A stretch of 32,000 bases of DNA from an archaeon (GTDB lineage Archaea > Iainarchaeota > Iainarchaeia > Iainarchaeales > CSSED10-239). The position numbers and the translations under genes are program-made. The DNA is taken from positions 30,001 through 62,000 of the forward strand of contig JBBABY010000005.1 of NCBI GenBank assembly GCA_041657425.1, given 5' to 3'. A model generated the notes under the pieces. It was not told the DNA's origin, searched no databases, and saw only the letters and a program-made list of their open reading frames with translations. Of the stretch, positions 1 to 30,371 are shown in pieces (position 1 is the stretch's first letter; each line of letters starts with the position of its first letter).

Positions 1-920
1 AAACAAATATAGTGATATTCTGAATTTTTCAGTAATTTCTTTCCAACGACAAGAGTTCCTTTTTCTTTTTTTTGAGTTGTAATTTTACCAACTCTGTAAT
101 TAAGTGTCTGTAATAATAATCTTAATCTTAAGATTAATTCTTTACTTGCAGACACATATCTACAACTATCTTTTTTCTTTTTATGAATATACCCGTCAGA
201 TAACAACAACCCTTCAATAAATGCTTCTTTTTGCTCATCTGGAATCGTATAAACCCAAGAAGGAATTATTTTATTCTTTGCACCTTTGTTAAATCCAAGG
301 GATTCAATAAATTTAGTTATGTTAACTGAATTCATATAGATGTAAGTTTTATCAGTAGTAATTGTCTTAAATCCAAATACTTTTTTACAAGTAGTTATAC
401 ATTTTTCTCTACCCTCTGTTCCTTCAGGTAAGGCAAAACCTATTTCTCCTTTATCTCTAATCCAACCATCTCCAAGATAAAGTCCTAAGAATAACATTAA
501 ATCTGTTGTTGATTTTTCTGGTATTTTTACATCATTAATTACATTTACTTTATAATCGCCTTTCTTTGAAAGTTGTATTTTTTCAAAAGTAAACGGTTTA
601 TTTCCTTTTAATTTCTTTAATGTAATTATTTGATCTCCTTTTTTTAATTCTTCAAGTGTTTTCCAAATTAAAGTGTTTGGTTTTCCTCTTGGAAGTTTAT
701 TAACAACTAAGAATGGGTGATTTCCTGTTGCTTTGATGTTATGATGAAAAGTTTCAATTTCATAAACTTTCTTAACTCCATTATCAAACACACCACTGCA
801 TTTTTTCAGAACCAATTTGTGTGTTTTTTGATCAAATGCATAAACCATTTCTCCAACTTTAATTTCAGTTATTTTTTTAAGTCCGGTTTCTGTGTAAATT
901 AATGAGTCTTTACTTAAGCA
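1..920 (-). mobile_element. Intein (Hint domain plus LAGLIDADG homing endonuclease) inserted in PorB; partial, C-terminal splice junction off-window
   Basis: Right after ...NEGYMN the sequence reads CLSKDSLIYTETGLKKITEIKVGEMVYAFD (block A, Cys1 codon 920..918). It continues with IKATGNHPFLV (block B TxxH) and two LAGLIDADG motifs, LGLYLGDGWI and AFIEGLLLSDGYI. The canonical PorB continuation (T/S-G-x-Q) is missing, so the C-extein must lie beyond position 1. Confidence 0.85.
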
Positions 921-1343
921 ATTCATGTACCCTTCATTCGAATAACAAAGATAAACAAAATCATGTCCTCTTTCTAGTGCTCCAGATAAACTTTGAAGAC
1001 CAATATCAAAACTTCCACCATCTCCAGCAATTACTAAAAAATTAATGTCTTTTTTTATTTTTCCTTTTTTCTTTTGTGCTCTGTATGCACTTTCAACTCC
1101 AGAAATTGTTGCGGCAGAGTTTGCAAAAAGAGAATGTATCCAAGGAATATTCCATGCAGTCTGTGGATAAACTGTTGTTGTAACTTCTGCACAAGAAGTT
1201 GCGCTGCTTGCAACAACTGGTTTGTCGCTTGCCGCAATCACAGTCTTACAAATAATTGCAATGGGGCACCCTGCACAAGTTCTGTATCCTGGAACCATTG
1301 CTTTACTTTCAGCTAATTTAATAGCAAGTTCTTTTGAGTTCAT
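1..1343 (-). CDS. porB: Pyruvate/2-oxoacid:ferredoxin oxidoreductase beta subunit (PorB), 5' part; interrupted by an intein; ORF runs off the left window edge
   Basis: Hand translation from ATG 1343..1341 gives MNSKELAIKLAESKAMVPGYRTCAGCPIAI...NFLVIAGDGGSFDIGLQSLSGALERGHDFVYLCYSNEGYMN. This is the PorB TPP-binding GDG-x26-N..YMN region. The frame stays open to position 1. It is absent from the supplied ORF track because no stop lies in the window. It sits at the end of the porD-porA gene string. Confidence 0.9.
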   Translation of the reverse strand, partial: MNSKELAIKLAESKAMVPGYRTCAGCPIAIICKTVIAASDKPVVASSATSCAEVTTTVYPQTAWNIPWIHSLFANSAATISGVESAYRAQKKKGKIKKDINFLVIAGDGGSFDIGLQSLSGALERGHDFVYLCYSNEGYMNCLSKDSLIYTETGLKKITEIKVGEMVYAFDQKTHKLVLKKCSGVFDNGVKKVYEIETFHHNIKATGNHPFLVVNKLPRGKPNTLIWKTLEELKKGDQIITLKKLKGNKPFTFEKIQLSKKGDYKVNVINDVKIPEKSTTDLMLFLGLYLGDGWIRDKGEIGFALPEGTEGREKCITTCKKVFGFKTITTDKTYIYMNSVNITKFIESLGFNKGAKNKIIPSWVYTIPDEQKEAFIEGLLLSDGYIHKKKKDSCRYVSASKELILRLRLLLQTLNYRVGKITTQKKEKGTLVVGKKLLKNSEYHYIC

Positions 1344-1346
1344 GTT

Positions 1347-2507
1347 TTATTCCTTTTCTTTTTCAAATCTGTGTTTTTTATAATTATCAACCATCGCTAA
1401 AATTAAATCTCTAAATGCTGGATTTTTTATAACATCGTTATTATTAGGATATGCAGATTCTTTCTGTCTGCCTTTAGAGGGGTTAAATAAAATTGCATCA
1501 ATTTTATTTTCCCCGTCTAATTTTAATGTGCTAGGTAATTGCTTTGTTCCATCACGCATGCTCCAATCATAACCTATAAGTTTTGAATTTATGTTACTAT
1601 CAGATAATACTCGACGAATCGGATATTGCATATATGTCCAATCATCGGATCTTGCAGCTGAAGAATATCCAACAAATGATGCTGGCATTTTCTTACTATC
1701 ACTAGCATCTACAAATATAAAAACTGGATCTTTATATTCTTGTTTATAATTATTGATAAATTTCATAAACGTATTAACAATTATTCTTGTTTTTGTTCCA
1801 TCTCCAACTTCTCCATATCTTCGATCAGGATTACTTGAAGGATATTTAAATTTATCTACAATTACTTTTTTACCATCTGGTTTAATTGACCAAGTATAAG
1901 GCACACCAGTACTTGCAATACCTACCACAACTATTGGTCTTTTTGTAAGTTTTGAAATTCTATTTACAAAAAATTCAGTAATTAAAATCTCTTTTCTAAA
2001 GGAGTTCATAAATTCAAAATCAGAAAAGTGCAATTTATATTTGTAAAACACTTCTTCTATTTCTTTTTCTAGTTCGTAACCATCTTTAATTTTTCCTGCT
2101 CTCACTTTTTCAAATAAAATATTAAGATCTTTTAGTATTGGAGAATTCACTTGATTAATAGAATTTATATTTAAGTCTGAAATCTGGGATAATATTTCAT
2201 TAAAATATACTTTCTCTCTTAATAATTGTTCTATTCCTAACTTTTCTAAACTTGTAAATACTTTGTTTTCCATATCGCTATACTTGGACGACTGCCAATA
2301 GTACCGGCTATTTAATATACGTCTAACTTCTTCTCTAAGGCGATGTATGCCAATTTTGTTATTCCTTATTTTTTCAAACAATTCGTTTAAATCCTTTAAT
2401 ATTGGACGCCCTTTTAGTTCTGCAGGATTTATTTTTGAATGTGTAATAGATAGTAATAATTCATTAAATTTGTGAGGCCCATCAGGTTTACGATTTAATT
2501 TAGGCAT
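1347..2507 (-). CDS. Hypothetical protein (386 aa, Cys-free) located between porA and porB
   Basis: Long ORF, same strand, 21 nt downstream of the porA stop; its own stop is 3 nt before the porB ATG. It has an internal duplication (RPILKDLNELFEKIRNNKIG / SPILKDLNILFEKVRAGKIKDG). The C-terminal globular part has hydrophobic strands VVVGIASTG and VFIFVDASDS. No family recognised. Confidence 0.6.
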   Translation of the reverse strand: MPKLNRKPDGPHKFNELLLSITHSKINPAELKGRPILKDLNELFEKIRNNKIGIHRLREEVRRILNSRYYWQSSKYSDMENKVFTSLEKLGIEQLLREKVYFNEILSQISDLNINSINQVNSPILKDLNILFEKVRAGKIKDGYELEKEIEEVFYKYKLHFSDFEFMNSFRKEILITEFFVNRISKLTKRPIVVVGIASTGVPYTWSIKPDGKKVIVDKFKYPSSNPDRRYGEVGDGTKTRIIVNTFMKFINNYKQEYKDPVFIFVDASDSKKMPASFVGYSSAARSDDWTYMQYPIRRVLSDSNINSKLIGYDWSMRDGTKQLPSTLKLDGENKIDAILFNPSKGRQKESAYPNNNDVIKNPAFRDLILAMVDNYKKHRFEKEKE

Positions 2508-2528
2508 AAAATTTTCACTTTAATTATT

Positions 2529-3689
2529 TTATTCCTTAATTCCAATATATCTGCTTTTTAGTTTCTTTCCTGCAATTACAGAAACTAAAAGTTCTTCAAT
2601 ATCTTTTTGATAAATGTCTCTTCCACCAAGTCCAAAGACTAAGGACATTACTTCTGGTTTATTTGTTGTATTCATTACTGTTAAACAAATATCTTTGTAA
2701 AGAGGAGGATAACTTCCTGGCCCTTCAGTTCTTTCAAGAACAATTATTTTTTTTGCTTTCTTTAAAGCTTTTGAATATTCTTCATAAAGGAATGGTCTGA
2801 ATAATATTGGTCGCAAAAGACCAACAGATTTTCCTTCTTTTCTTAATTTATCAATAACATCTTTTGAGCTTTCTGCTGTTGAACTTAATACAATAAGAAC
2901 TGTTTCTGAAGAACTTGCAAAATAATCTTCATAAAAATTAATTTCTTTTCCAAAATTATTTTTAAATTCTTTAGAAATTTTTGAATAGTTGTCTTTAACT
3001 TCCAAAAAAGCATCAAACATTTGTTTTCTTATTTCCATGTAACTGTCAGGTAAAGCAAGAGCACCAATAGTTATTGGGTGATCAGTGTCAAGAAGATTAT
3101 ATTTAGGTTTAAATTCTCCTACAAATTTTTTAACAGTTAAATCATCATAAACATTAATAACTTCCATATTGTGGCTTGTGTAAAATCCATCAATACAAAC
3201 CATGATCGGAAGAGATACTGATTCTGCAAGTTTTAATCCAAATAATGTCATCTCATAAGCTTCCTCGGCATTCTCACAATACACTTGCATCCAACCTTGG
3301 TCAATAGCAGACATTGAGTCACTGTGATCACAATGAATGTTAATCGGCGCAGAGATTGCTCTATTAGCCACAGGCATAACTATTGGAAGTCTTAAACCAC
3401 TAGCGACACTAAGTGCTTCATACATGTAAAGTAAACCTTGAGAAGCAGTAGCTGTAACTGCTCTAACACCTGCAGCACTTGCACCAATGGTTGCTGAAAG
3501 AGCAGAGTGTTCAGATTCTGTTCTAATTAATTCAGTGTCAACAAGCCCATTAGCAGAATACTTAGCATAACTTTCAATGATTGGTGTTTGAGGAGTAATT
3601 GGATACATTGCAAATACTTCTGGGTTAATTTGCTTTAATGCATAAGCAATTGCTTCTCCACCACTTAAACCTAATTTTGTTGTTTTCAT
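2529..3689 (-). CDS. porA: Pyruvate:ferredoxin oxidoreductase alpha subunit (PorA)
   Basis: MKTTKLGLSGGEAIAYALKQINPEVFAMYPITPQTPIIE...SEHSALSATIGASAAGVRAVTATASQGLLYMYE is typical of the PorA N-terminal domain. The ATG at 3689 is preferred: it forms an ATGA overlap with the porD stop and has GGTGAAGG upstream. The track ORF extends to 3710. Confidence 0.9.
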   Translation of the reverse strand: MKTTKLGLSGGEAIAYALKQINPEVFAMYPITPQTPIIESYAKYSANGLVDTELIRTESEHSALSATIGASAAGVRAVTATASQGLLYMYEALSVASGLRLPIVMPVANRAISAPINIHCDHSDSMSAIDQGWMQVYCENAEEAYEMTLFGLKLAESVSLPIMVCIDGFYTSHNMEVINVYDDLTVKKFVGEFKPKYNLLDTDHPITIGALALPDSYMEIRKQMFDAFLEVKDNYSKISKEFKNNFGKEINFYEDYFASSSETVLIVLSSTAESSKDVIDKLRKEGKSVGLLRPILFRPFLYEEYSKALKKAKKIIVLERTEGPGSYPPLYKDICLTVMNTTNKPEVMSLVFGLGGRDIYQKDIEELLVSVIAGKKLKSRYIGIKE

Positions 3690-3964
3690 TCCTTCACCAT
3701 CTTTATACATTTAACTGGACAGATTTCAGCACAGATTCCACAGCCTTTACAATAATCCATATTTGTTTCTCCTCTTTTAATGCCAGTTTTATCTTTTTTG
3801 GTTAAGATACAATGTTCAGGGCAAGCATTAAAGCAAAGCATACAGTGTATGCATTTTTTTGAGTCCCACACTGGCTTAACACTTCTCCAAGATCCAGTTT
3901 TGTTAACAAGGGCAGTTCCTCCAGGAAGCACCCCACCAAGATTGTGTTTTTGTTTTTCTGTCAT
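3686..3964 (-). CDS. porD: Pyruvate:ferredoxin oxidoreductase delta subunit (PorD), 2x[4Fe-4S] ferredoxin-like
   Basis: Two CxxCxxCxxxCP motifs (CIHCMLCFNACP, CKGCGICAEICP), size about 90 aa, immediately upstream of porA. ATG at 3964 preferred over GTG at 3973. Confidence 0.9.
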   Translation of the reverse strand: MTEKQKHNLGGVLPGGTALVNKTGSWRSVKPVWDSKKCIHCMLCFNACPEHCILTKKDKTGIKRGETNMDYCKGCGICAEICPVKCIKMVKE

Positions 3965-4053
3965 AAATATCACTTATACCTAAATACTATATAGTATATA
4001 AAATACAAGTCTTTTTATAATTATTTAATTTAAAATATATAAGTGATTTAATA

Positions 4054-4881
4054 ATGCCAGAACTAAGAACCTATAAACGAGGAAAAACAGAAGTTGTTGT
4101 TAATGGGCATAAGCATGAATTACTAGATAAAAAAATATTTGAAGAAATTAAAAGACAAGCAAATTTTGTGAGATTACCAAATTCAACAGGCCAGTTTTCT
4201 CAAATTTTAGAAAAAGAGATCTTTATTAAAAAGGCAATTGATCCAGAAACAGACATAGATCAAATGAAGGATTACTTAAAACAATCACAAGTAGTAGATA
4301 ATATTCCAGAGATTTATGGTTATATTAAACTAAATGATAAGTTATATATTATTCAAAAACTAATTTTAGACTCGATGGTATTAAGTGATTATTTAAAAAA
4401 AGCAGATAAAAAAGAAATATTAAGAATAAAAGAGCAACTAAGAAAACAAGGAGAAATACTTTTACAAAATAACCTTTTACCTTGGGATTTTAAAATAAAG
4501 AATTTAATTTATTCTAAGAAAGATAATAAAGTTTATATTTGTGACAATGAGATATCCCACATACACCCCGAACTATTATATTCTTTAATTAAAAGAGCAA
4601 ATTTACAACCCTCTAGAAAATTAAAATTATTAAGAGATTTGTCAAAAATAAAAAGAAAAGTTGTTTTAATAAAACAAAAATTGCTTAATTTAAATAAAAA
4701 AACAAGCAATGCAGAAACTGTATTGCAATCTAATAAAGAAATGAAATCTTCTAAATTAAAAAGATTAATTCATTCAGAAACTAAAAAGATATATTCTAAT
4801 TTATCAAGTCAAGAAATTAAAAAAATACAACAAATTACTTTTGAAGAGTTTTTGGCAGATCTTGATTCTTATTTAAAATAA
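4054..4881 (+). CDS. Hypothetical protein, possibly an atypical protein-kinase-like fold; Lys-rich C-terminal tail
   Basis: 275-aa ORF. The segment LLPWDFKIKNLIYSKKDNKVYICDNE resembles a kinase catalytic loop (D-x-K-x-x-N) followed by a degenerate DFG (CDN). Judged by eye only. Its 3' end overlaps the porG 3' end by 13 nt (convergent). Confidence 0.4.
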   Translation: MPELRTYKRGKTEVVVNGHKHELLDKKIFEEIKRQANFVRLPNSTGQFSQILEKEIFIKKAIDPETDIDQMKDYLKQSQVVDNIPEIYGYIKLNDKLYIIQKLILDSMVLSDYLKKADKKEILRIKEQLRKQGEILLQNNLLPWDFKIKNLIYSKKDNKVYICDNEISHIHPELLYSLIKRANLQPSRKLKLLRDLSKIKRKVVLIKQKLLNLNKKTSNAETVLQSNKEMKSSKLKRLIHSETKKIYSNLSSQEIKKIQQITFEEFLADLDSYLK

Positions 4882-5426
4882 TCAAATCCTTTTTTAAGAC
4901 ATAAAAGATTTGGTTGAATAATATCTTTCTTTCCTTTCTTTTCAAATTCTGTAGTTATTGATGTTTCAACTGAAGAATATTTGATAACTCCAAATAATTT
5001 AACAAAGGCACCAATAAGAACTGCATTTGGATTATTTAATTTTAATAATTCCATAGAAATTGAACTTCCATCAATTACGTTTGTTTTTTCTTCTTCTTTT
5101 ATGTATTTTTTAAAGTCTGCTTTCTTTTTATTTGTATTAATTATATAATCACAAGTAAACTTTGAAAGATCAGGGATTGCTGTAAACAAAGTATCGTCAA
5201 TAACAATAACTAAATCTGGATTAGTTATTGGTTCATGCACTCTTATTTGTTTGTCAGAAAGTCTAACAAATGATCTTACTGGCGCTCCTCTTCTTTCAGG
5301 GCCATACTCAGGAAATGCTTGAACCACTTTTCCATCGATTAGCCCAGAATCTGCAATCAATTGTGCACAGGTTTTGGCACCAAGTCCTGCTCTACCATAA
5401 ATTATTATTTCAAAGTTTGTTTTCAT
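4869..5426 (-). CDS. porG: Pyruvate:ferredoxin oxidoreductase gamma subunit (PorG)
   Basis: MKTNFEIIIYGRAGLGAKTCAQLIADSGLIDGKVVQAFPEYGPERRGAPVRSFVRLSD matches the conserved PorG N-terminus (GxGGQG-like loop, YGPE.RG.P). Confidence 0.9.
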   Translation of the reverse strand: MKTNFEIIIYGRAGLGAKTCAQLIADSGLIDGKVVQAFPEYGPERRGAPVRSFVRLSDKQIRVHEPITNPDLVIVIDDTLFTAIPDLSKFTCDYIINTNKKKADFKKYIKEEEKTNVIDGSSISMELLKLNNPNAVLIGAFVKLFGVIKYSSVETSITTEFEKKGKKDIIQPNLLCLKKGFDYFK

Positions 5427-5839: not shown

Positions 5840-7186
5840 TTGAAAACACTAGAAAAATACTTTAAACCACATACAATTGCAATAATTGGGGCCTCTGATA
5901 AGCAGGCAAGTATAGGTAATACCCTCGCTAAGAACGTAAGCAACTATAAAAGAAAAGTATTTTTTGTAAATCCTAGATTGTCAGGAAAGAAAATATTAAA
6001 TAAACAAGTTTTTGCAAGTATTCTAGAAATCAAAGAAACAATAGATTTAGCAGTTATTGCAGTTCCTGCAGTTGCTGTGATTTCTGTTATTGAAGAAATT
6101 GCAAAAACTAAATGTAAGAACATATTAATGGTGACTTCTGGTTTTTCAGAGATTGGAAGAATCGACATTACTGAGAATATAAAAAAATTAATAACAAAAC
6201 ACAAAATAAATCTAGTGGGTCCAAATTGTTTAGGTTTATTAAATCTAGAAAATAATTTAGATATTACATTTAATGACAGAAATAAATATGATTTGCCAAA
6301 AGTAGGAAGAACATCAATAATTTCTCAGTCAGGCGCTCTTGGTCTTGCACTTTTAGATCTCTCAAGTAAAGAGCAATTAGAAATTAATAAGTTTATTTCA
6401 TATGGTAATGCATTAGATGTTGATGAAAGTGATTTATTAGAGTATTTTTATACTGACAAAAGCACAGACCTAATTCTTTGTTACATTGAAGGAGTGCAAA
6501 ACGGGAAGAAGTTCTTTGAAACATTAAAGAAGGTTACAAAGAAAAAGAAAGTTATAATTTTAAAAGGCGGAATCTCAGAGAAAGGAACAACAGCAGTTAA
6601 GAGTCACACCGCAGCAATTGCCGGTTCTTCAAAAGTTTTTTCTACAGCAGTTAAGCAAGCAGGAGCAAAAGAAGTAGATAATATTAGAGATTTATTTAAT
6701 CTTGCAAAGTTTTATTCTTGGTACAAAACAAATAAGATGGAAAATATTCAGATAATAACTAATGGTGGGGGGTTTGGCGTAATTACAACAGACCAATTAG
6801 ATTTACAAAAAATAAAGTTGGCAGAAACTACAAAAGAAACAAAAGAAAAAATAAAAAAGATTGTTCCAATCTATGCGACAACCACAAACCCAATTGATTT
6901 AACAGGGGATGCCGATAATGCCAGATTCTGTAAAGTTATTGATATTTGTTTAAAAGACAAAAATGTTTCAGCAATTGCAGTATTAATGCTTTTGCAACTA
7001 CCGAGTATTTCTTCTTCAATTGTTAATGAGATTGCAAGCAGAAAATCAAAAACACACAAATCAATATTTTTAGTATCAGTTGGTGGAAGTAAAACCGATA
7101 AGCAATTAGCAGATTTTGAAAAACAAAAAGTACTATGTTTTAAAGACCCAAAAGATCTTTCAAGGATTTTAAAACAAATTATTTAA
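5840..7186 (+). CDS. Acetate--CoA ligase (ADP-forming) alpha-type subunit / CoA-binding succinyl-CoA-synthetase-like protein
   Basis: HTIAIIGASDKQASIGN (CoA-binding Rossmann), AVIAVPA, GPNCLGL, SQSGALG and TAAIAGS motifs are typical of ACD alpha. TTG start with a GTGA SD-like element 6 nt upstream; no in-frame ATG nearby. Confidence 0.8.
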   Translation: MKTLEKYFKPHTIAIIGASDKQASIGNTLAKNVSNYKRKVFFVNPRLSGKKILNKQVFASILEIKETIDLAVIAVPAVAVISVIEEIAKTKCKNILMVTSGFSEIGRIDITENIKKLITKHKINLVGPNCLGLLNLENNLDITFNDRNKYDLPKVGRTSIISQSGALGLALLDLSSKEQLEINKFISYGNALDVDESDLLEYFYTDKSTDLILCYIEGVQNGKKFFETLKKVTKKKKVIILKGGISEKGTTAVKSHTAAIAGSSKVFSTAVKQAGAKEVDNIRDLFNLAKFYSWYKTNKMENIQIITNGGGFGVITTDQLDLQKIKLAETTKETKEKIKKIVPIYATTTNPIDLTGDADNARFCKVIDICLKDKNVSAIAVLMLLQLPSISSSIVNEIASRKSKTHKSIFLVSVGGSKTDKQLADFEKQKVLCFKDPKDLSRILKQII

Positions 7187-7445: not shown

Positions 7446-9041
7446 TTATTTTTTACAATTTTTTTCTTTATGACAACAGGAGCAGTTATCATTATGTGTT
7501 ATTTCTAATATTTTTCTTCCTTGTTTGGAATAATAATCATTAATTGCTGCTTGAAGTGCATCTGCTGCTAAGTTAGAACAGTGCATTTTAATTGGTGGCA
7601 AGCCGTCAAGAGATTTTGCAACATCTCCTCTAGTTATTTTAAAAGCATCATCTAGAGTTTTACCTTTAGCAAGTTCAGTAACCATAGATGAGGTTGCAAT
7701 TGCTGCTGCACAGCCAAGTGTCTTAAACTTAATATCTTGAATAATTTCTTTTCCGTCTTTGTTTTTTGAAACAGTAATGTATAACCACATTATATCTCCA
7801 CAATTATGAACAGTAAAAGCATTTGTGTTGTAAGAATGCGAAGTATCTATTTCTAAATTATACACTTTGCCGGAATAGTTTTCTGTTTTTTTAAAAGTAA
7901 TGGGGGTATATAAAATGTTTTTATCTATCCAAGAGTTTATTGCTTCTGGTCTTAGATTATAAAAAGTAACTTCAATAATTTTAGCAAGTTTTGTTGTAGA
8001 TTCTTTATCGCCCACGTGTATTCTATAACATTCTTGATGTTTTTGCTCTTTTTTATCTGTTTTTTCTTTTTCTGTATATATTGATGGAATAATTCCTTGT
8101 CTTAATAATAATATTTTAAGTTTATGGACTAATTCCTTAGATATAGTAGAATATCCCCCCCTTGGTATTTTTGTATTAAAGAAACCATCCCCTTTCCAAA
8201 TACCATAAATTAAAGATTTTTGTTTTTCTGGAGGCAATGTCATAAACATATCTGGTATATCTTTATTTTTAGCACCAGATTTAAATAACTCTTTAAATAA
8301 TTTAACTATAAAAACGCTATTTATATAAACTACTTGAGAATGTTGAGTTTCATTTTTTTTAATAATTGGGGTTATTCCAAAAATTTTTTCTGAAATTCTA
8401 ACCACGTCTTGTGCAAGATTATTTTCTTTTAAATTAAAACAAAATGCTATATGCACATTATTTGTTTTATCAAAATAATATCCTTCTGAAAGATAATATC
8501 CTGCTAATCTTAAAAAATCTGAATCTAATTTTATTTTTGAAGGTATTGATTTACTATTGTGATCAAATTTCTTTTTTTTGGTATTTACTTCTAAGTAATC
8601 AACATCTTTTGTATCAGATAGTATTGCATATAAAATTAAGTCGCCTTTATCTAGTTGTTCTGCGTGATACCAGGCCGGAATTAATGTTTTTTTATTTTTC
8701 GTTCTTAAAAATTTATCTCCTTTAGGGATTTTTATTGCATAAACAAGATGTTCTTTAGTTAATTTTATTTCTCCTAGTCTGTTTTTTAGAACAATAATTG
8801 GTTCAGAAATAACTCTTTTGTAAGTTTCAGTAACTGAATGATACTTCCCATCATGACTTATAATAAAATCATTTTTTTTTATATCTTTAATTTTTTTTAG
8901 TTTTAAATTAGTGTGTATATTTGTATCTTTAAACAAGCATTTAGGATTTCCTACCTTTCCAACTCCGTCAGCATTTTCAATCTCTCCAAGGTTTTGTGGT
9001 TTTAAGAAATTTTCCATAACTTTTTTTGAATAGTTTTCCAT
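7446..9041 (-). CDS. iscU: Fe-S cluster assembly scaffold IscU/NifU-like, interrupted by an intein (exteins 34 + 118 aa)
   Basis: N-extein MENYSKKVMENFLKPQNLGEIENADGVGKVGNPK. C-extein CGDIMWLYITV...KFKTLGCAAAIATSSMVTELAKGKTL...LPPIKMHCSNLAADALQAAINDY. Together these contain all three IscU Cys ligand motifs, plus a C-terminal Cys/Lys-rich tail NCSCCHKEKNCKK. Confidence 0.9.
   Translation of the reverse strand: MENYSKKVMENFLKPQNLGEIENADGVGKVGNPKCLFKDTNIHTNLKLKKIKDIKKNDFIISHDGKYHSVTETYKRVISEPIIVLKNRLGEIKLTKEHLVYAIKIPKGDKFLRTKNKKTLIPAWYHAEQLDKGDLILYAILSDTKDVDYLEVNTKKKKFDHNSKSIPSKIKLDSDFLRLAGYYLSEGYYFDKTNNVHIAFCFNLKENNLAQDVVRISEKIFGITPIIKKNETQHSQVVYINSVFIVKLFKELFKSGAKNKDIPDMFMTLPPEKQKSLIYGIWKGDGFFNTKIPRGGYSTISKELVHKLKILLLRQGIIPSIYTEKEKTDKKEQKHQECYRIHVGDKESTTKLAKIIEVTFYNLRPEAINSWIDKNILYTPITFKKTENYSGKVYNLEIDTSHSYNTNAFTVHNCGDIMWLYITVSKNKDGKEIIQDIKFKTLGCAAAIATSSMVTELAKGKTLDDAFKITRGDVAKSLDGLPPIKMHCSNLAADALQAAINDYYSKQGRKILEITHNDNCSCCHKEKNCKK
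7803..8939 (-). mobile_element. Complete 379-aa intein with LAGLIDADG homing-endonuclease domain inside IscU
   Basis: Starts CLFKDTNIHT (Cys1 codon 8939..8937). Block B is LTKEHLVY. LAGLIDADG motifs are LAGYYLSEGYY and LIYGIWKGDGFF. Block F is VYNLEIDTSHSY and block G is AFTVHN, followed by the +1 Cys (codon 7802..7800) of the CGD motif. Confidence 0.9.
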
Positions 9042-9052
9042 AATCTTTTCAC

Positions 9053-10195
9053 CTAATATTTATAAGGACACATTTCTCTTAATTTTTTAATTGTGTCTTT
9101 AACAGTGTCAACAGTATATTTAATTTCTTCTTTAGTATTATCAATTCCTACAGAGAATCTAACAGTTCCATGAGTTTGTTCTTGTTTTAATCCTATTGCT
9201 CTTAAAACATGACTTGGTTCAAGAGTATTAGATGAACAAGCAGAACCAGTTGAAACTGAAATTCCTGCAGCATCAAGATACAAAAGTATTGCTTCTCCTT
9301 CTGCATACATGAAACTCAAATTAGCATTATTACATAGCCTTTTATCTTTTGAACCATTCAACCAAGACTCTTCAACATCTGATAATCCTTTAATCAATTG
9401 ATTTCTAAGATTAGTCATATGTTCAATTTCTTTTTCTCCAATGATGTCGGTTGCTTTAGAAAAACCAATTATTCCAGGAACATTAACAGTTCCGCTTCTT
9501 AAATTATATTCGTGTCCTCCACCATGAAGAAGCGGTTCTAATTTTATTCCTTCTTTAATAAATAATCCTCCAACACCTTTAGGTCCATAAATCTTATGAG
9601 CATTAATTGTTAAAAGATCAATATTGTCTTTCTCAAGGTTAATTGGAGCTTTTGTAAAACTTTGACAAGCATCTGAATGGAAAAGAGTTTCTTTTTCATG
9701 GCAAATTTTTCCAATCTCTCTTAAGTCTTGAATAGTTCCAATCTCGTTATTTCCATGAATTACAGAAACTACAAGTGTGTCTTTTTTAATTGCCTTTTCA
9801 AGTTGGGAAAGATTAACAAAACCTTCTTTATCAACATCAAGATATGTTACAGAATATCCTTTTCTTTCAAGAAACTTATAAACATTAAGAATACTATCGT
9901 GTTCAATCTTTGTTGTAATAATGTGTTTCTTATTTTTGTTATTTTCTGCTAGCCCCTTAATTGCAAAATTATTACTTTCTGTTCCTCCAGAAGTAAAGAT
10001 TAGTTTGTGATTTTTGCTATTGGCCTTCTTTGAAATGTGCTCTCTTGCTTTATCTAGTTCTGCTTTAGCTTCGCGACCAATTGTGTGAAGACTAGAGGAA
10101 TTTCCGAAGTATTTTTCTTCTGCGTCAGTTATTGCTTTCATAACAGATGAATGCATCTTTGTTGTTGCTGCATTATCTAAATAAATTGATTTCAT
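9053..10195 (-). CDS. iscS: Cysteine desulfurase (IscS/NifS class)
   Basis: YLDNAATT, SGGTESNN, the PLP-lysine motif INAHKIYGPKGVGGL, the active-site loop STGSACSS and RFSVG are all canonical. Confidence 0.92.
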   Translation of the reverse strand: MKSIYLDNAATTKMHSSVMKAITDAEEKYFGNSSSLHTIGREAKAELDKAREHISKKANSKNHKLIFTSGGTESNNFAIKGLAENNKNKKHIITTKIEHDSILNVYKFLERKGYSVTYLDVDKEGFVNLSQLEKAIKKDTLVVSVIHGNNEIGTIQDLREIGKICHEKETLFHSDACQSFTKAPINLEKDNIDLLTINAHKIYGPKGVGGLFIKEGIKLEPLLHGGGHEYNLRSGTVNVPGIIGFSKATDIIGEKEIEHMTNLRNQLIKGLSDVEESWLNGSKDKRLCNNANLSFMYAEGEAILLYLDAAGISVSTGSACSSNTLEPSHVLRAIGLKQEQTHGTVRFSVGIDNTKEEIKYTVDTVKDTIKKLREMCPYKY

Positions 10196-10500
10196 TTCTT
10201 TTCCTCTTTTTTACAGCATTTATTTTTACAAAAATCTTTTGTGTGTTGATTAACGATCTTAACAAGTGGTTTAATTGTTTTCTTGTTTAAGGAATAAATA
10301 ATGTTCTTTCCTTGTCTTTTAGAAAAAACAATATTGCAATTAAGAAGTTGTTTTAAACTATGGCTAACCTTTGATTGTTCTTCTCCAGTAATTGTACTTA
10401 TTTCAGAAACTGTTTTTTCAGACTTATAAAGTAGCTTAATTATTTTCCATCTCGTCTTGTTGGAAATAACTCCAAAGAAATTATATGATAAACATTTCAT
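10192..10500 (-). CDS. ArsR/SmtB-family winged-HTH transcriptional regulator with Cys-rich C-terminus
   Basis: ISNKTRWKIIKLLYKSEKTVSEISTITGEEQSKVSHSLKQLLNCNIVFSKRQGKNIIYSLN is a typical ArsR HTH. The tail is DFCKNKCCKKEEKK. A 4-nt overlap with the iscS start implies an operon. Confidence 0.8.
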   Translation of the reverse strand: MKCLSYNFFGVISNKTRWKIIKLLYKSEKTVSEISTITGEEQSKVSHSLKQLLNCNIVFSKRQGKNIIYSLNKKTIKPLVKIVNQHTKDFCKNKCCKKEEKK

Positions 10501-15368: not shown

Positions 15369-15590
15369 TTGGCATTACCTGAAGACATTAAAATTCGTGT
15401 CTTAAAAAAGATAGATAATATTCTCCAAGAACCTCATAAAAGACACCTAGAAGGTTCTACTAAATATTTTGTAGCAGAAGTTAGTCAATATAGATTAACA
15501 TATTTCGTATATGAAAATATTTTATTAGTTAAATTTTATTTTGTAGGAAAACATAAAGAATATGAAAAATGGTATAAATCATTTTTTTGA
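15369..15590 (+). CDS. RelE/ParE-superfamily toxin-like protein (non-ATG start)
   Basis: LPEDIKIRVLKKIDNILQEP...GSTKYFVAEVSQYRLTYFVYENILLVKFYFVGKHKEY follows the RelE/ParE pattern (L..lp..i...i...i..l...P......l.g.....R.G.YRiiY.i......v..ig.R.e.Y). The frame is open back to 15342 but holds no ATG; candidate starts are TTG 15369 or ATT 15348. Confidence 0.5.
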   Translation: MALPEDIKIRVLKKIDNILQEPHKRHLEGSTKYFVAEVSQYRLTYFVYENILLVKFYFVGKHKEYEKWYKSFF

Positions 15591-15854
15591 TTTTGTATTC
15601 CTGTAAGGATAAGTAATATATTTAGCATAATCTCCTAGTGCTTCTTCAGGAGTCAAAGTCTTTCTTTTCCCTAGTTTCACTTGCTCCTCTATATATGCAA
15701 TTTTTCTATTTACCATCTCAATTTCAATGTCTTGTTTGCTTTTACCAAAAGAGATTATTGCAAGTCTTATTGCTTCTGATTTAGTTGAGGCATAACCTTC
15801 TTCAATCATTTTATTTAAGATTTTTTCAGTAATTCCAGTTATTGTTACATTCAT
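15579..15854 (-). CDS. Ribbon-helix-helix (CopG/antitoxin-like) protein
   Basis: The N-terminus MNVTITGITEKILNKMIEEGYASTKSEAIRLAI fits a beta-strand, helix, helix RHH pattern. 91 aa. Convergent with the RelE-like ORF, with a 12-nt 3' overlap. Confidence 0.5.
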   Translation of the reverse strand: MNVTITGITEKILNKMIEEGYASTKSEAIRLAIISFGKSKQDIEIEMVNRKIAYIEEQVKLGKRKTLTPEEALGDYAKYITYPYRNTKSKK

Positions 15855-15917
15855 ATTATCACAATATAATATAGAATAAAAATATATTTAAATGATTCGT
15901 TTTGAATCAAAAATGAA

Positions 15918-16799
15918 TCACGGTGTTTTTCTTTTAATATCTAATCCAAATGCATGTACAAATTTACCGTAGTTATTTTCTGGTTCAAATTCTTTTGCTT
16001 TATCTTTGTATTCAAATATCTTTTCTTTTCTTTTTTCTAAATTATCATTGCAAATAATTCCTGGGCCACCAATACATCCGCCCTTACAAAAAAGAATATC
16101 TACAAATCTTATTTTTTTATTTTGTTTAAGATTAGTCATTGCTTTTGCTATGCAATCAGGGCCATCACAAACAATCACTTCGTCAAGATTAAGAATGTCT
16201 TTAGTAATCATGGAACTTGCAACTCCTCCGCCAAGAGGATAAATCTTAGTTACATCATTATAGAATTTATCAAACTCATTATTTTCTTTTGTATCAGATA
16301 TTTTTTTTAATTTCCCAAGTTCTTCAAGATAATCATAAATTTCAACAAGTTCTTTAAAAGTTAAAGCAAAATCTATGCAATCTGGGTTTTCTTTAGCTTC
16401 ATTTTTTTTTGCAAAACACGGGCCAACAAAGATTGTTTTATATTCTTCTCCAAATTCTCGCTTAACAAATCTAGCCATCACAACCATTGGTGAAGCAACA
16501 TCAAGCAATTTATCTTTGTGTTCTGGATATTGGTTTTCCACAAGTTTAATTATGGTTGGGCAGTTCCCACAAATGTATTGTTTTTCAGGATTATCATTAA
16601 TTACATCAATGTAACGATAATTAATAAGTTTAGCTGCATAAGTAAGTTCCATAATTTTTGAGAAACCCATAGTTCTTAAATCTGAGATGATATTTGGGAA
16701 TTCAAAATCCACAGGAAAGCTTGGCGCCAAAAGGCAAATTGTTTTCTGTGTGTTTAAGACTTCTGCAACTTCTTTTAATTCTTCGTTCATTTGTTTCAC
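15918..16799 (-). CDS. Very short [FeFe]-hydrogenase H-cluster-domain-like protein (293 aa, no accessory ferredoxin domains)
   Basis: Three H-cluster-like motifs appear in canonical order. ICGNCPT (residues 76-82) compares with TSCCP. FVGPCFAKKNEA (C128) compares with MPCxAKKxE. DILFCKGGCIGGPG (C238, C242) compares with ExMxCxxGCxxGGGQP. LLAPSFP, LRTMGFSKI and YPLGGGVASSM match other conserved stretches. GTG start at 16799 (overlapping the taw1 stop) or ATG at 16790. Confidence 0.65.
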   Translation of the reverse strand: MKQMNEELKEVAEVLNTQKTICLLAPSFPVDFEFPNIISDLRTMGFSKIMELTYAAKLINYRYIDVINDNPEKQYICGNCPTIIKLVENQYPEHKDKLLDVASPMVVMARFVKREFGEEYKTIFVGPCFAKKNEAKENPDCIDFALTFKELVEIYDYLEELGKLKKISDTKENNEFDKFYNDVTKIYPLGGGVASSMITKDILNLDEVIVCDGPDCIAKAMTNLKQNKKIRFVDILFCKGGCIGGPGIICNDNLEKRKEKIFEYKDKAKEFEPENNYGKFVHAFGLDIKRKTP

Positions 16800-17788
16800 T
16801 TCTTTTCAATTATAAAATTATCTACTTTTGAATTTTTGTTTTTTAAAAGAATGATTCTTGATGGTTTACAGCTATCAGAGATTTTAAAATCCTTTGAAAC
16901 TTTTTCTAATTCTTTTGCATAATTCATACATTCATCAAAGCTTGGCATGTTTTCAATGGCCATGGTTTTTCTAGAATATCCTAAAAACATGTAAGATTTA
17001 ATTTCAATAAAATCTGTTTTTGATTTTTCAAAAATTTTTATAAATTCTGGAAGGTATTTTAGGTCATCGTTAAGTCCCTTAATCAACGTAAATCTAATGA
17101 CTTTTCTACATTTTAGTTTTGGAAAAATATCAATTGTTTTCATTAATCTTTCCCAAGAGTCTTTGATTTTTGGTCTATTGATTTTTAAATGTAATTCTTT
17201 ATTAGGAGCTACAAAAGAAAGATATAGTTGAGTAGGAAGTGCTTTATTTTTATTAAGTTTTTCGAGATTTTCTGGTTCTAGTCCATTAGTCACAACAAAA
17301 ATAGTTTTAATTTCTTTTCGGGATTTCAGTTCAAGAATCATTTTGTCAAGATCCTTGTATATTGTTGGTTCTCCAGAAAGAGATATTGCAACATGACTTG
17401 GAATCTCTGCTTCTTTTAGTTTTTTTTTATCCACTTTTTTAAATCCACCAAAGCCAGACAATAATTTTTTTCTTTCTGCAAATAATCCATCAATAATTTC
17501 TTTAGGATCATCATAGTCGCTTTCTGAAAATTTATCTACAGTCATATATTCTGCAGGCCTCCAACAAAATATACAATTATTATGGCACCAAAGAACTGTT
17601 GGAGTAATTTGTGCACATCTGTGGCATTCAACATTATAGAAATGTTCTTTATAGCAAACCCCTTCTCCTCTAATTGCTTTTTTATTCCATTCACATATTT
17701 CAACTGCGGAGTGTTTGCCAAAAATCCCATAATGTTTATGTTTTAGATCATCAATAATTTCTTTTTTAATTAATTCTTTAGTTACCAT
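16796..17788 (-). CDS. taw1: tRNA 4-demethylwyosine synthase Taw1/TYW1 (radical SAM)
   Basis: HRCAQITPTVLWCHNNCIFCWRP has the auxiliary-cluster Cys plus the CxxxCxxC-type radical SAM motif, as in Taw1. AISLSGEPT also matches, and the size (330 aa) is appropriate. Confidence 0.8.
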   Translation of the reverse strand: MVTKELIKKEIIDDLKHKHYGIFGKHSAVEICEWNKKAIRGEGVCYKEHFYNVECHRCAQITPTVLWCHNNCIFCWRPAEYMTVDKFSESDYDDPKEIIDGLFAERKKLLSGFGGFKKVDKKKLKEAEIPSHVAISLSGEPTIYKDLDKMILELKSRKEIKTIFVVTNGLEPENLEKLNKNKALPTQLYLSFVAPNKELHLKINRPKIKDSWERLMKTIDIFPKLKCRKVIRFTLIKGLNDDLKYLPEFIKIFEKSKTDFIEIKSYMFLGYSRKTMAIENMPSFDECMNYAKELEKVSKDFKISDSCKPSRIILLKNKNSKVDNFIIEKK

Positions 17789-17887
17789 ATAAAAAACACT
17801 TATTTTTAATTGTTATTATTCTATATATAGTATAAATATACAATTTTTATAGTTAAGCTTATAGGCATAAAACAAAAAGGTGAAAGA

Positions 17888-29111: not shown

Positions 29112-30371
29112 ATGTTTGAAATATACAAAATTCAAAATCAACATTGGGAAAACAAATTATACGATTTACCAATAAAAAGAAAAATTTTAGAAACTTTAAA
29201 AAAAGAACTATTAAATCACAAATTAATTATTTCTATAGAGGGGCCAAGAAGAGTAGGGAAATCTGTTTTAATGAAACAATTGATTAATTATCTTATAGAA
29301 AATAAAGTGCCTTCAAAAAACCTATTTTATTTTTCTTTTGATAAACTTGATAAAAAGATATTAGATACATTAAAGGACTATGAGGAATTGTCCGGAATAT
29401 CATTAAGAGAAGAAAAAACTTATTTATTTTTTGACGAAATTCAAAAGATTAAAGATTGGCAATCAGATATTAAGATAATTTATGATAATTATCCAAATTT
29501 AAAAATAATAGTAAGTGGATCTACATTAAGAGTTAGTAAAAAAGAAAGCCTTGCAGGAAGGATTGTTGATTTTTTTATTAATCCTTTATCTTTCGAAGAA
29601 TATCTTATATTTTCAGGTAAAGAAAAATTATTAGATTCAGAAATAGATTATATTTTTGAAAAAGAGTATAATAATTATTTATTTAGGCAATATCCAGATA
29701 TTGTTTTAAATAAAGAAATAGATTCCACGCAATATATTTCATTAATTCTACAAAAAGTGATTTTTGAAGATTCGGAAAAGTATATTAGAAATGTGGATAA
29801 AGATATTTTATACAAAATTTGTATGATTATACTTAGAGATCCTGGGCAGATTATTAATTATTCTGACTTATCGAAAGATTTAGGTGTGAAAAGAGAAGTT
29901 GTTTCAAAATATATTGATTTTTTAGTTAATTCTGGAGTTGTAAAAAAAGTTTATAATTTTTCAAATAATTCTCGAAAATTAGAGATTAAATCTAAAAAGT
30001 TTTATCCGTATTGTACATCACTAACAAGAGCAGTAACTGATAATCCAGATATGGGTAAGATTATAGAGACTGATGTTTGTTTTCAATTAGATGCAAAATA
30101 CTTTTTAAATAACAAAGGTAAAGAAGAAATAGATTTTCTACTTATAGACCCGATAACTTCTAAAAAGATAGGGGTAGAAGTAAAATATAGAAATTTAATA
30201 ACAAATAAAGACGTAAGTGCATTTAGATCAGCGATAGTTAAAAAGTTAAATTTGGATAAAAGAATAATAATTGTAAAAGCAGAATCAAAATTAGATTTTA
30301 ATACAAAAGAAATAGTTCCTGTCATGTATTTTACAATCTTTAAACACCAATCAGAATTCAAATTTAAATAA
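29112..30371 (+). CDS. AAA+ superfamily ATPase of the COG1373 type (AAA_14 N-domain plus DUF4143-like, PD-(D/E)xK-like C-terminus)
   Basis: Walker A EGPRRVGKSV, Walker B YLFFDEIQ, and C-terminal EEIDFLLIDP...IGVEVKY. ATG at 29112 preferred over TTG at 29103. Confidence 0.8.
   Translation: MFEIYKIQNQHWENKLYDLPIKRKILETLKKELLNHKLIISIEGPRRVGKSVLMKQLINYLIENKVPSKNLFYFSFDKLDKKILDTLKDYEELSGISLREEKTYLFFDEIQKIKDWQSDIKIIYDNYPNLKIIVSGSTLRVSKKESLAGRIVDFFINPLSFEEYLIFSGKEKLLDSEIDYIFEKEYNNYLFRQYPDIVLNKEIDSTQYISLILQKVIFEDSEKYIRNVDKDILYKICMIILRDPGQIINYSDLSKDLGVKREVVSKYIDFLVNSGVVKKVYNFSNNSRKLEIKSKKFYPYCTSLTRAVTDNPDMGKIIETDVCFQLDAKYFLNNKGKEEIDFLLIDPITSKKIGVEVKYRNLITNKDVSAFRSAIVKKLNLDKRIIIVKAESKLDFNTKEIVPVMYFTIFKHQSEFKFK

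Follow-up and report, generated by a model that had tools for sequence, protein, structure and literature searches.

A probable group E-type, H-domain-only [FeFe] hydrogenase encoded directly behind TYW1 in an Iainarchaeota-type archaeon

Contig JBBABY010000005.1 (GenBank assembly GCA_041657425.1) of an archaeon carries, in the 32-kb stretch that we analyzed (positions 30,001 to 62,000 of the forward strand, hereafter the window), an open reading frame (ORF), hydA, whose product is most probably a monomeric "ultraminimal" [FeFe] hydrogenase of group E. We put the probability of this reading, in which the protein of an Iainarchaeota-type DPANN archaeon would consist of the H-domain alone with shortened loops, at about 0.8. 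The ORF spans 15918-16799 and encodes 293 amino acids (aa), as given by the initial annotation, on the minus strand and with a GTG start; the ATG three codons further on, at 16790, would shorten the product to 290 aa and corresponds to the start used by several relatives. The product has a mass of ~33.6 kDa and contains 10 Cys residues (22, 77, 80, 128, 141, 211, 216, 238, 242, and 250). A protein identical to it is already present in public assemblies (P0001). The family was described in 2024, with biochemical validation, and this ORF adds one sequence to it without changing existing knowledge. Nevertheless, it would represent, cleanly and at full length, the smallest known type of H2-producing catalyst (one [4Fe4S] plus [2Fe]), a type of interest to biotechnology.

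The profile search proposed in the initial annotation gives an end-to-end match to PF02906 (Fe_hyd_lg_C), with residues 19-246 aligned to positions 2-245 of the 245 in the profile (E 3.7e-39) and a score of 135 bits against a cutoff of 22.1. This is the sole Pfam match of the protein, and no CxxCxxCxxxC ferredoxin-type motif was found in its 293 residues, in agreement with the predicted lack of N-terminal ferredoxin-like domains. In NCBIfam, the best model is that of the monomeric group B1, matched in its C-terminal H-domain part only (122.9 bits), whereas the group A model TIGR02512 reaches only 64.8 bits; with this score and without the relay Cys, the protein is not a group A-type sequence with a TSCCP relay. 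Lacking the N-terminal modules, the protein stays under the full-length cutoff in every NCBIfam match. A phmmer search against the PDB sequences retrieves [FeFe] hydrogenases only. The AlphaFold2 model, built from a 44-sequence alignment, has a mean predicted local distance difference test (pLDDT) score of 93.4 and a predicted template modeling (pTM) score of 0.91, and the top 50 Foldseek matches in the PDB are all [FeFe] hydrogenase H-domains, with query-normalized TM-scores of 0.70-0.76 and a probability of 1.00. Profile and fold searches thus give hydrogenases only and do not lead to Nar1/NARF-like or unrelated proteins, the outcome that the initial annotation had named as contrary to its proposal.

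A report of "ultraminimal" [FeFe] hydrogenases in DPANN archaea, mentioned in that annotation, does exist. Greening et al. (Cell 2024; PMC11216029) described the group E [FeFe] hydrogenases of these archaea as monomeric, H-domain-only proteins with a mean length of 286 residues and one [FeFe] hydrogenase per genome, hosted by Iainarchaeota, Micrarchaeota, and Nanoarchaeota, the named members being Fm and the Nanoarchaeota enzyme Na. Fm, the 33-kDa enzyme of Ca. Forterrea multitransposorum, was matured with synthetic [2Fe]adt, after which it contained 4.2 Fe per protein, displayed H-cluster states by Fourier-transform infrared (FTIR) spectroscopy and produced H2; its voltammetry is bidirectional with a bias to H+ reduction, unlike that of the group C enzyme of T. 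maritima (PMC11216029). The closed Forterrea genome is without HydE, HydF, and HydG, and a role in ferredoxin re-oxidation was inferred for group E (PMC11216029).

In the Forterrea locus (L011, on chromosome CP045477.1), the only HydA-type match is a 286-aa protein, P0042, with a calculated mass of 33.5 kDa. We take P0042 to be Fm, because no other HydA-type match occurs at this locus, because one hydrogenase is reported per genome, and because the masses agree (33.5 vs 33 kDa). The window HydA is 52% identical to P0042 over 289 aligned residues (E 1e-109) and differs from it in 48% of residues. Both are H-domain only, of 293 and 286 aa, respectively, and both contain the motifs CGNCP, GPCFxKKxE, and FCxGGCxGGPG. 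The two also share the phylum-level lineage (Iainarchaeota type), the TYW1-hydA gene pair, the gene order ArgRS, DsbA-like, TYW1, hydA, RadA, phosphoenolpyruvate (PEP)-synthase-like, and the absence of HydEFG (on the window side, in 32 kb). One difference occurs downstream of hydA. In Forterrea, IscU, SufD, SufB, and SufC follow directly on the opposite strand (L011/L081 8865-12383; likewise in L009, L013, and L014), whereas a small toxin-antitoxin-like ORF pair takes this place in the window, with IscU/IscS ~6 kb further. H-cluster binding and catalysis after artificial maturation belong to this 52%-identical orthologue only.

The family membership of the window HydA is also apparent from the relatives that we collected. 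A database search covering 1.84 billion representatives returns ~35 clusters of ~260-310 aa before any longer protein, and a length of ~290 aa is kept in 320 homologues (~35 clusters at 50% identity). A search with the family alignment in one genome per species gave 96 loci, of which those closest to the window are labeled Iainarchaeum, Diapherotrites, or Forterrea. We built a neighbor-joining tree from 78 HydA sequences and 7 group C H-domain outgroups (100 bootstraps), the published tree being a maximum-likelihood one. All of the short HydA sequences form one clade versus the group C outgroups (100/100 bootstraps), and the window HydA falls in the clade that holds the Forterrea HydA. Because of this single short-sequence clade and the position of the window protein with Forterrea, we assign the ORF to group E, in line with the suggestion that it may belong to the ultraminimal group.

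The active-site residues agree with this assignment. The motifs CGNCP, GPCFAKKNE, and FCKGGCIGGPG and the four Cys ligands, initially recognized by eye, are recovered by translation and by a phmmer alignment to CpI of Clostridium pasteurianum, in which C80, C128, C238, and C242 correspond to C300, C355, C499, and C503. By this correspondence, C80 is a [4Fe4S] ligand and C242 is the Cys bridging [4Fe4S] and [2Fe]. K131 is equivalent to K358, which contacts a CN ligand (the distal CN), and E134 to E361. The four Cys are invariant in 78/78 family sequences, and, together with the counterparts of K358 and E361, in the 44-member alignment. Across the 78 sequences and four clades, the residues that are invariant or nearly so are A-P-S, C80, P81, S-P-M, P127, C128, K131, E134, D234, C238, and C242, where A-P-S shows a single exception (Ala at the Ser position) and S-P-M is kept in 77/78 sequences. 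The conservation of residues that touch only [2Fe], namely the counterparts of K358 and of the bridging C503 and the A-P-S motif, argues that the [2Fe] pocket of group E-type HydA is probably occupied in vivo.

Other pocket residues differ from those of CpI. As read by eye in the initial annotation, the relay Cys of TSCCP is replaced by Asn (N79=C299) and the Met of MPC by Gly (G126=M353); we also observe L236 in place of M497 and M105 in place of Q325. Besides N79, the counterparts of the proton-relay residues are R62 (E282), V66 (R286), and L99 (S319), and E279 falls in a gap. The canonical proton pathway (C299, E279, S319, E282, R286) is therefore absent from the window HydA in the alignment to CpI; this pathway is a hallmark of groups A and B, not of the [FeFe] superfamily as a whole. 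The relay-Cys position is Asn in 53/53 Iainarchaeota-type and code-25 candidate phyla radiation (CPR) sequences. Nanoarchaeota-type sequences have Val, Ala, Thr, or Pro there, and the other CPR sequences have Pro. The extra Cys of the first motif, C77, occurs in 52/53 of the Iainarchaeota-type and code-25 CPR sequences and is Ser, Ala, or Thr in the other clades. Asn at the relay position is compatible with catalysis, since Fm has CGNCP and is active. As the canonical relay is absent, protons would have to arrive differently, probably along a short path through solvent in which N79 takes part; the candidate carriers in the window HydA may be N79, C77, or bulk water.

Comparison with other hydrogenases places the window HydA closest to group C. 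Its nearest longer relatives are 27-40% identical (E 1e-24 to 1e-37), with an H-domain that begins at residue ~55-75. The ten that we scanned contain an N-terminal 2x[4Fe4S] module, to which most of them add the PF04060 Fe-S motif and PAS, histidine kinase, MCP, or sigma-54 domains. This predicted architecture is that of group C sensory hydrogenases, which agrees with the published placement of group E as sister to group C (PMC11216029). Group C enzymes, such as HydS of Thermotoga maritima, are thus the closest non-minimal relatives by sequence and likewise do not conserve the canonical relay Cys, but the window HydA has neither their N-terminal 2x[4Fe4S], nor their C-terminal PF04060, nor any PAS, kinase, MCP, or sigma-54 domain. 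HydA1 of Chlamydomonas reinhardtii (M1, group A1), the smallest enzyme characterized before, resembles the window HydA in being H-domain only, without accessory clusters, and in receiving electrons directly from ferredoxin, a donor that we infer for the window protein. Nevertheless, HydA1 is 457 residues long, with its TSCCP/MPC/M497 pocket and relay complete, whereas the window HydA is ~160 residues shorter due to condensed loops, lacks the relay, and matches HydA1 with an E of only ~6e-06 (phmmer). CpI (group A1, M3) shares the H-domain fold (query-normalized TM-score ~0.72 in Foldseek), the four Cys, K358, E361, and P301, but it also holds four accessory Fe-S clusters, within ~210 residues at its N-terminus, has the complete C299-E279-S319-E282-R286 pathway, and is ~19% identical to the window HydA.

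From these features and the genes of the window, a mechanism can be proposed. C80, C128, C238, and C242 would bind [4Fe4S], C242 would bridge to the [2Fe] subcluster, and [2Fe] would sit in a pocket lined by A25-P26-S27, S103-P104-M105, and K131. Because there are no accessory Fe-S domains, [4Fe4S] is expected to be surface-exposed, and it most likely takes electrons directly from ferredoxin reduced by pyruvate/2-oxoacid:ferredoxin oxidoreductase (POR), the likely source of low-potential electrons. HydA would then reduce protons to H2 and so re-oxidize ferredoxin, while ADP-forming acetyl-CoA synthetase (ACD) turns acetyl-CoA into acetate and ATP. The initial annotation had pointed to POR and ACD genes nearby, and both are indeed present, ~9-15 kb from hydA. 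The window also has genes for Fe-S assembly, on which the [4Fe4S] part of the H-cluster depends. Maturation would have to take place by a route other than HydEFG, or with distant genes, given that the search of the 32-kb window found no HydE, no HydG, and no HydF-type GTPase, as previously noted, and that TYW1 is its only radical S-adenosylmethionine (SAM) gene.

Several observations weigh against this reading. The window HydA shares with low-activity sensory hydrogenases the replacement of the relay Cys and of both pocket Met residues. A free ferredoxin gene was not found in the 32-kb window, and hydA is not beside POR but probably co-transcribed with a tRNA-modification gene, TYW1. The only activation of Fm came from a synthetic [2Fe] mimic, not from its own cell (PMC11216029). 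With HydEFG absent from the window and from the closed Forterrea genome, and with Fm matured artificially, the H-cluster may never be assembled in vivo. A HydA with neither relay nor, as far as the window and the Forterrea genome are concerned, maturases bears on how protons are delivered and how the cofactor could be built without HydEFG.

The gene upstream of hydA, called Taw1 in the initial annotation, is confirmed as taw1/TYW1 and, since its score is above the equivalog cutoff, is predicted to be a bona fide 4-demethylwyosine synthase (Table 1). The GTG of hydA overlaps the TYW1 stop by 4 nt (AAGAAGTGAAACAAATG). TYW1 lies directly upstream of hydA on the same strand in 18/18 Iainarchaeota-type loci, including Forterrea (L001-L014, L025, L026, L040, L050), and the distance from the TYW1 stop to the hydA start is -4 to +15 nt in 15 of them. 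The gene order ArgRS, DsbA-like, TYW1, hydA, RadA, PEP-synthase-like is conserved as well, which means that inherited synteny explains part of the pairing. Different genes follow hydA, however, and the TYW1-hydA pair is kept where both flanks differ (L040, L001, L006). The junction leaves no space for a promoter, TATA-like boxes are found upstream of TYW1 only, and an inverted repeat follows the hydA stop, with a TATA-like box for the next small ORF after it. TYW1 and hydA are therefore likely to form a bicistronic unit, as judged from these sequence features. This coupling goes beyond the main text of the 2024 group E paper, in which Patescibacteria, radical SAM, and wyosine are not mentioned (PMC11216029).

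Just downstream of hydA, two small convergent and slightly overlapping ORFs, at 15579-15854 (-) and 15369-15590 (+), encode 91 and 73 aa. By eye, they look like a ribbon-helix-helix antitoxin and a RelE/ParE-like toxin, and they are probably a mobile insertion. We rejected them as part of the hydA unit, as only one related locus, the closest one (L001), has them and they show no family match.

Group E, as sampled here (loci L015-L062 versus L001-L014), is not archaea-only but shared by DPANN archaea and CPR bacteria, and it is widespread in the latter. In-frame TGA occurs in hydA of 37/80 species-level loci and is aligned with Gly in 184/234 cases, which corresponds to UGA read as Gly (code 25) in these 37 loci, as in SR1/Absconditabacteria and Gracilibacteria. 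With the group C root, all bootstraps (100/100) unite the Iainarchaeota-type with the code-25 CPR sequences in one clade, and none (0/100) recovers an archaea-only grouping of Iainarchaeota with Nanoarchaeota. The archaeal group E was termed a monophyletic clade in the main text of the original description (PMC11216029). The 100/100 grouping would imply inter-domain transfer of hydA between DPANN and CPR organisms, that is, among ultra-small symbionts. Further group E-type copies carry other CPR labels. The taxon labels of several loci ("Peribacteria", "Saccharibacteria") look unreliable. In three entries (P0078, P0085, and P0089; alignment A1, columns ~262-266), CEWWC stands for CxGGC, UGA having been read as Trp, and we regard these entries as mis-translated. 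We found no paper specific to the [FeFe] hydrogenases of Absconditabacteria or Gracilibacteria in a limited literature set, which is no proof of novelty.

In the code-25 CPR loci (L015-L053, L061), hydA is flanked on the same strand by radical SAM genes of the MiaB/RimO family and of a HemW-like type, usually ~30-150 nt away. The methylthiotransferase is closest to RimO (292 bits vs a cutoff of 251; e.g. L029 4512-5876), while the HemW-like protein has HemW as its best match, below the cutoff (e.g. L047 1336-2586). The order varies between RimO-hydA-HemW and hydA-RimO-HemW, and the trio lies within a UvrB...NusA housekeeping block. The longest RimO-like and HemW-like proteins (L027 4143-5921, L034 7293-8981) have a common ~130-aa insertion (…NNLKFRRQH.IG.YIADFYCPEKKLVIELDG…) that resembles a DUF559/Vsr-like endonuclease domain, suggesting that a mobile element entered both radical SAM genes. 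In the Nanoarchaeota-type clade, hydA follows RNase Z, and the other CPR copies lie beside membrane proteins, a rubrerythrin-like gene, and similar; no radical SAM neighbor of hydA occurs in either. We also looked among the neighbors for a hydA partner common to all clades (ferredoxin, flavodoxin, or maturase) and found none.

The location of hydA beside domain-specific radical SAM genes in two sister lineages may reflect chance twice, co-regulation of Fe-S proteins, or a functional link. We give only a small chance to the last of these, in which the exposed [4Fe4S]/H-cluster would supply low-potential electrons, or the radical SAM enzymes would aid a HydEFG-independent maturation. In the former case, the electrons for activation of the radical SAM cluster would come ultimately from H2 or ferredoxin via HydA. 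The flavodoxin domain fused to eukaryotic TYW1 offers a parallel for such an electron supply. The TYW1-hydA coupling, the radical SAM neighbors in CPR bacteria, and the sharing between DPANN and CPR are leads beyond the main text of the group E paper and offer handles on maturation and physiological role.

The same neighbors fit another explanation of the ORF, namely that only [4Fe4S] is present in vivo and that HydA is a small low-potential electron carrier or Fe-S protein, perhaps serving TYW1, and becomes a hydrogenase only after artificial maturation. The tight TYW1-hydA junctions, the RimO-like and HemW-like genes beside hydA in the sister CPR clade, the lack of HydEFG in the window and in the closed Forterrea genome, and the activity of Fm only after addition of synthetic [2Fe]adt are all consistent with it. 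We nevertheless consider it unlikely. The contacts made to [2Fe] only (K131=K358, C242=C503, A-P-S, S-P-M) are kept in four deeply diverged clades, a pattern not easily reconciled with a permanently empty pocket; Fm takes up the cofactor and reaches well-defined H-cluster states, and an active enzyme has been reported from other organisms without HydEFG.

A role as an H2 sensor or regulatory hydrogenase, like the group C relatives, is suggested by the PAS, histidine kinase, MCP, or sigma-54 modules of the closest non-minimal relatives and by the pocket, as sensory hydrogenases have similar substitutions (no relay Cys, M353 and M497 replaced). We judge this role very improbable, since PF02906 is the only domain in the 293 aa and leaves no signaling or output domain, no regulator is conserved beside hydA in any clade, and Fm is biased to H2 production, unlike the T. 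maritima group C enzyme. Finally, the ORF can hardly be taken for a Nar1/NARF-like factor in Fe-S assembly or for a pseudogene left by truncation of a larger hydrogenase: although PF02906 also covers Nar1-type proteins and the window HydA is far shorter than classical enzymes, Nar1-type proteins are eukaryotic with an N-terminal Cys-rich domain, whereas the window is archaeal (RadA, exosome, proteasome, TYW1) and its HydA has no such domain, the ~290-aa length is maintained across the homologues, and the compact, confidently predicted model matches hydrogenases only. The group E [FeFe] hydrogenase is thus the reading that we retain for the ORF.

The features of the window are listed in Table 1. 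Its G+C content is ~29% throughout, and further archaeal genes in it encode, besides RadA and TYW1, ArgRS, RNase P Pop5, proteasome alpha, SBDS, exosome Rrp4/Rrp41/Rrp42, and prefoldin.

Table 1 Features of the 32-kb window, with positions counted from its first letter. Residue numbers are those of the window HydA unless CpI is indicated.
Feature	Position	Strand	Remarks
PorB	3-1346	-	Runs off the window; translation shows a GDGG thiamine pyrophosphate (TPP) motif and an intein
386-aa Cys-free ORF between porA and porB	1347-2507	-	No Pfam or NCBIfam match
PorA	2529-3710	-	PorA_Arch is the best NCBIfam match
PorD, 2x[4Fe4S]	3686-3973	-	Two CxxCxxCxxxCP motifs
ORF interrupting the por genes	4054-4881	+	
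PorG	4869-5426	-	
ACD, alpha-type subunit	5840..7186	+	TIGR02717 E 3e-124, below cutoff; Pfam Succ_CoA_lig, CoA_binding
IscU/NifU scaffold with intein	7446-9041	-	NifU_N, Intein_splicing, LAGLIDADG_3 (homing endonuclease)
IscS-type cysteine desulfurase	9053-10195	-	Adjoins IscU/NifU
ArsR-type regulator	10192-10500		Adjoins the IscS-type desulfurase
Inverted repeat GATTC...GAATC and T-runs directly after the hydA stop	15870..15917	-	Plausible transcript end, from direct reading of the sequence
hydA	15918..16799	-	293 aa, GTG start; probable H-domain-only, group E-type [FeFe] hydrogenase
Motif 3, F-C238-K-G-G-C242-I-G-G-P-G (FCKGGCIGGPG)	16059..16091	-	Translation and CpI alignment
Motif 2, G126-P-C128-F-A-K131-K-N-E134 (GPCFAKKNE)	16398..16424	-	Translation and CpI alignment
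S103-P104-M105	16485..16493	-	Counterpart of CpI S323-P324-Q325, with Gln to Met; alignment to CpI
Motif 1, C77-G-N79-C80-P81 (CGNCP)	16557..16571	-	Translation and phmmer alignment to CpI
A25-P26-S27	16719..16727	-	Counterpart of CpI A230-P231-S232, lining the [2Fe] pocket; matched by motif and Pfam profile start
taw1/TYW1, radical SAM 4-demethylwyosine synthase (predicted)	16796..17788	-	TIGR03972 359 bits vs cutoff 318; PF04055, PF08608
Divergent AT-rich intergenic region with TATA-like boxes	17789..17887	.	Likely promoter region for TYW1-hydA and the divergent DsbA-like gene, from direct reading of the sequence

In the por region (3..5426, minus strand), the Pfam families POR_N, PFOR_II, and POR were matched. 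The PorB intein was recognized by eye in the translation (...SNEGYMN followed by CLSKDSLIYTETG...), which contains the LAGLIDADG-like blocks LGLYLGDGW and IEGLLLSDGY; together with that of the IscU/NifU scaffold, it is the second intein of the window.

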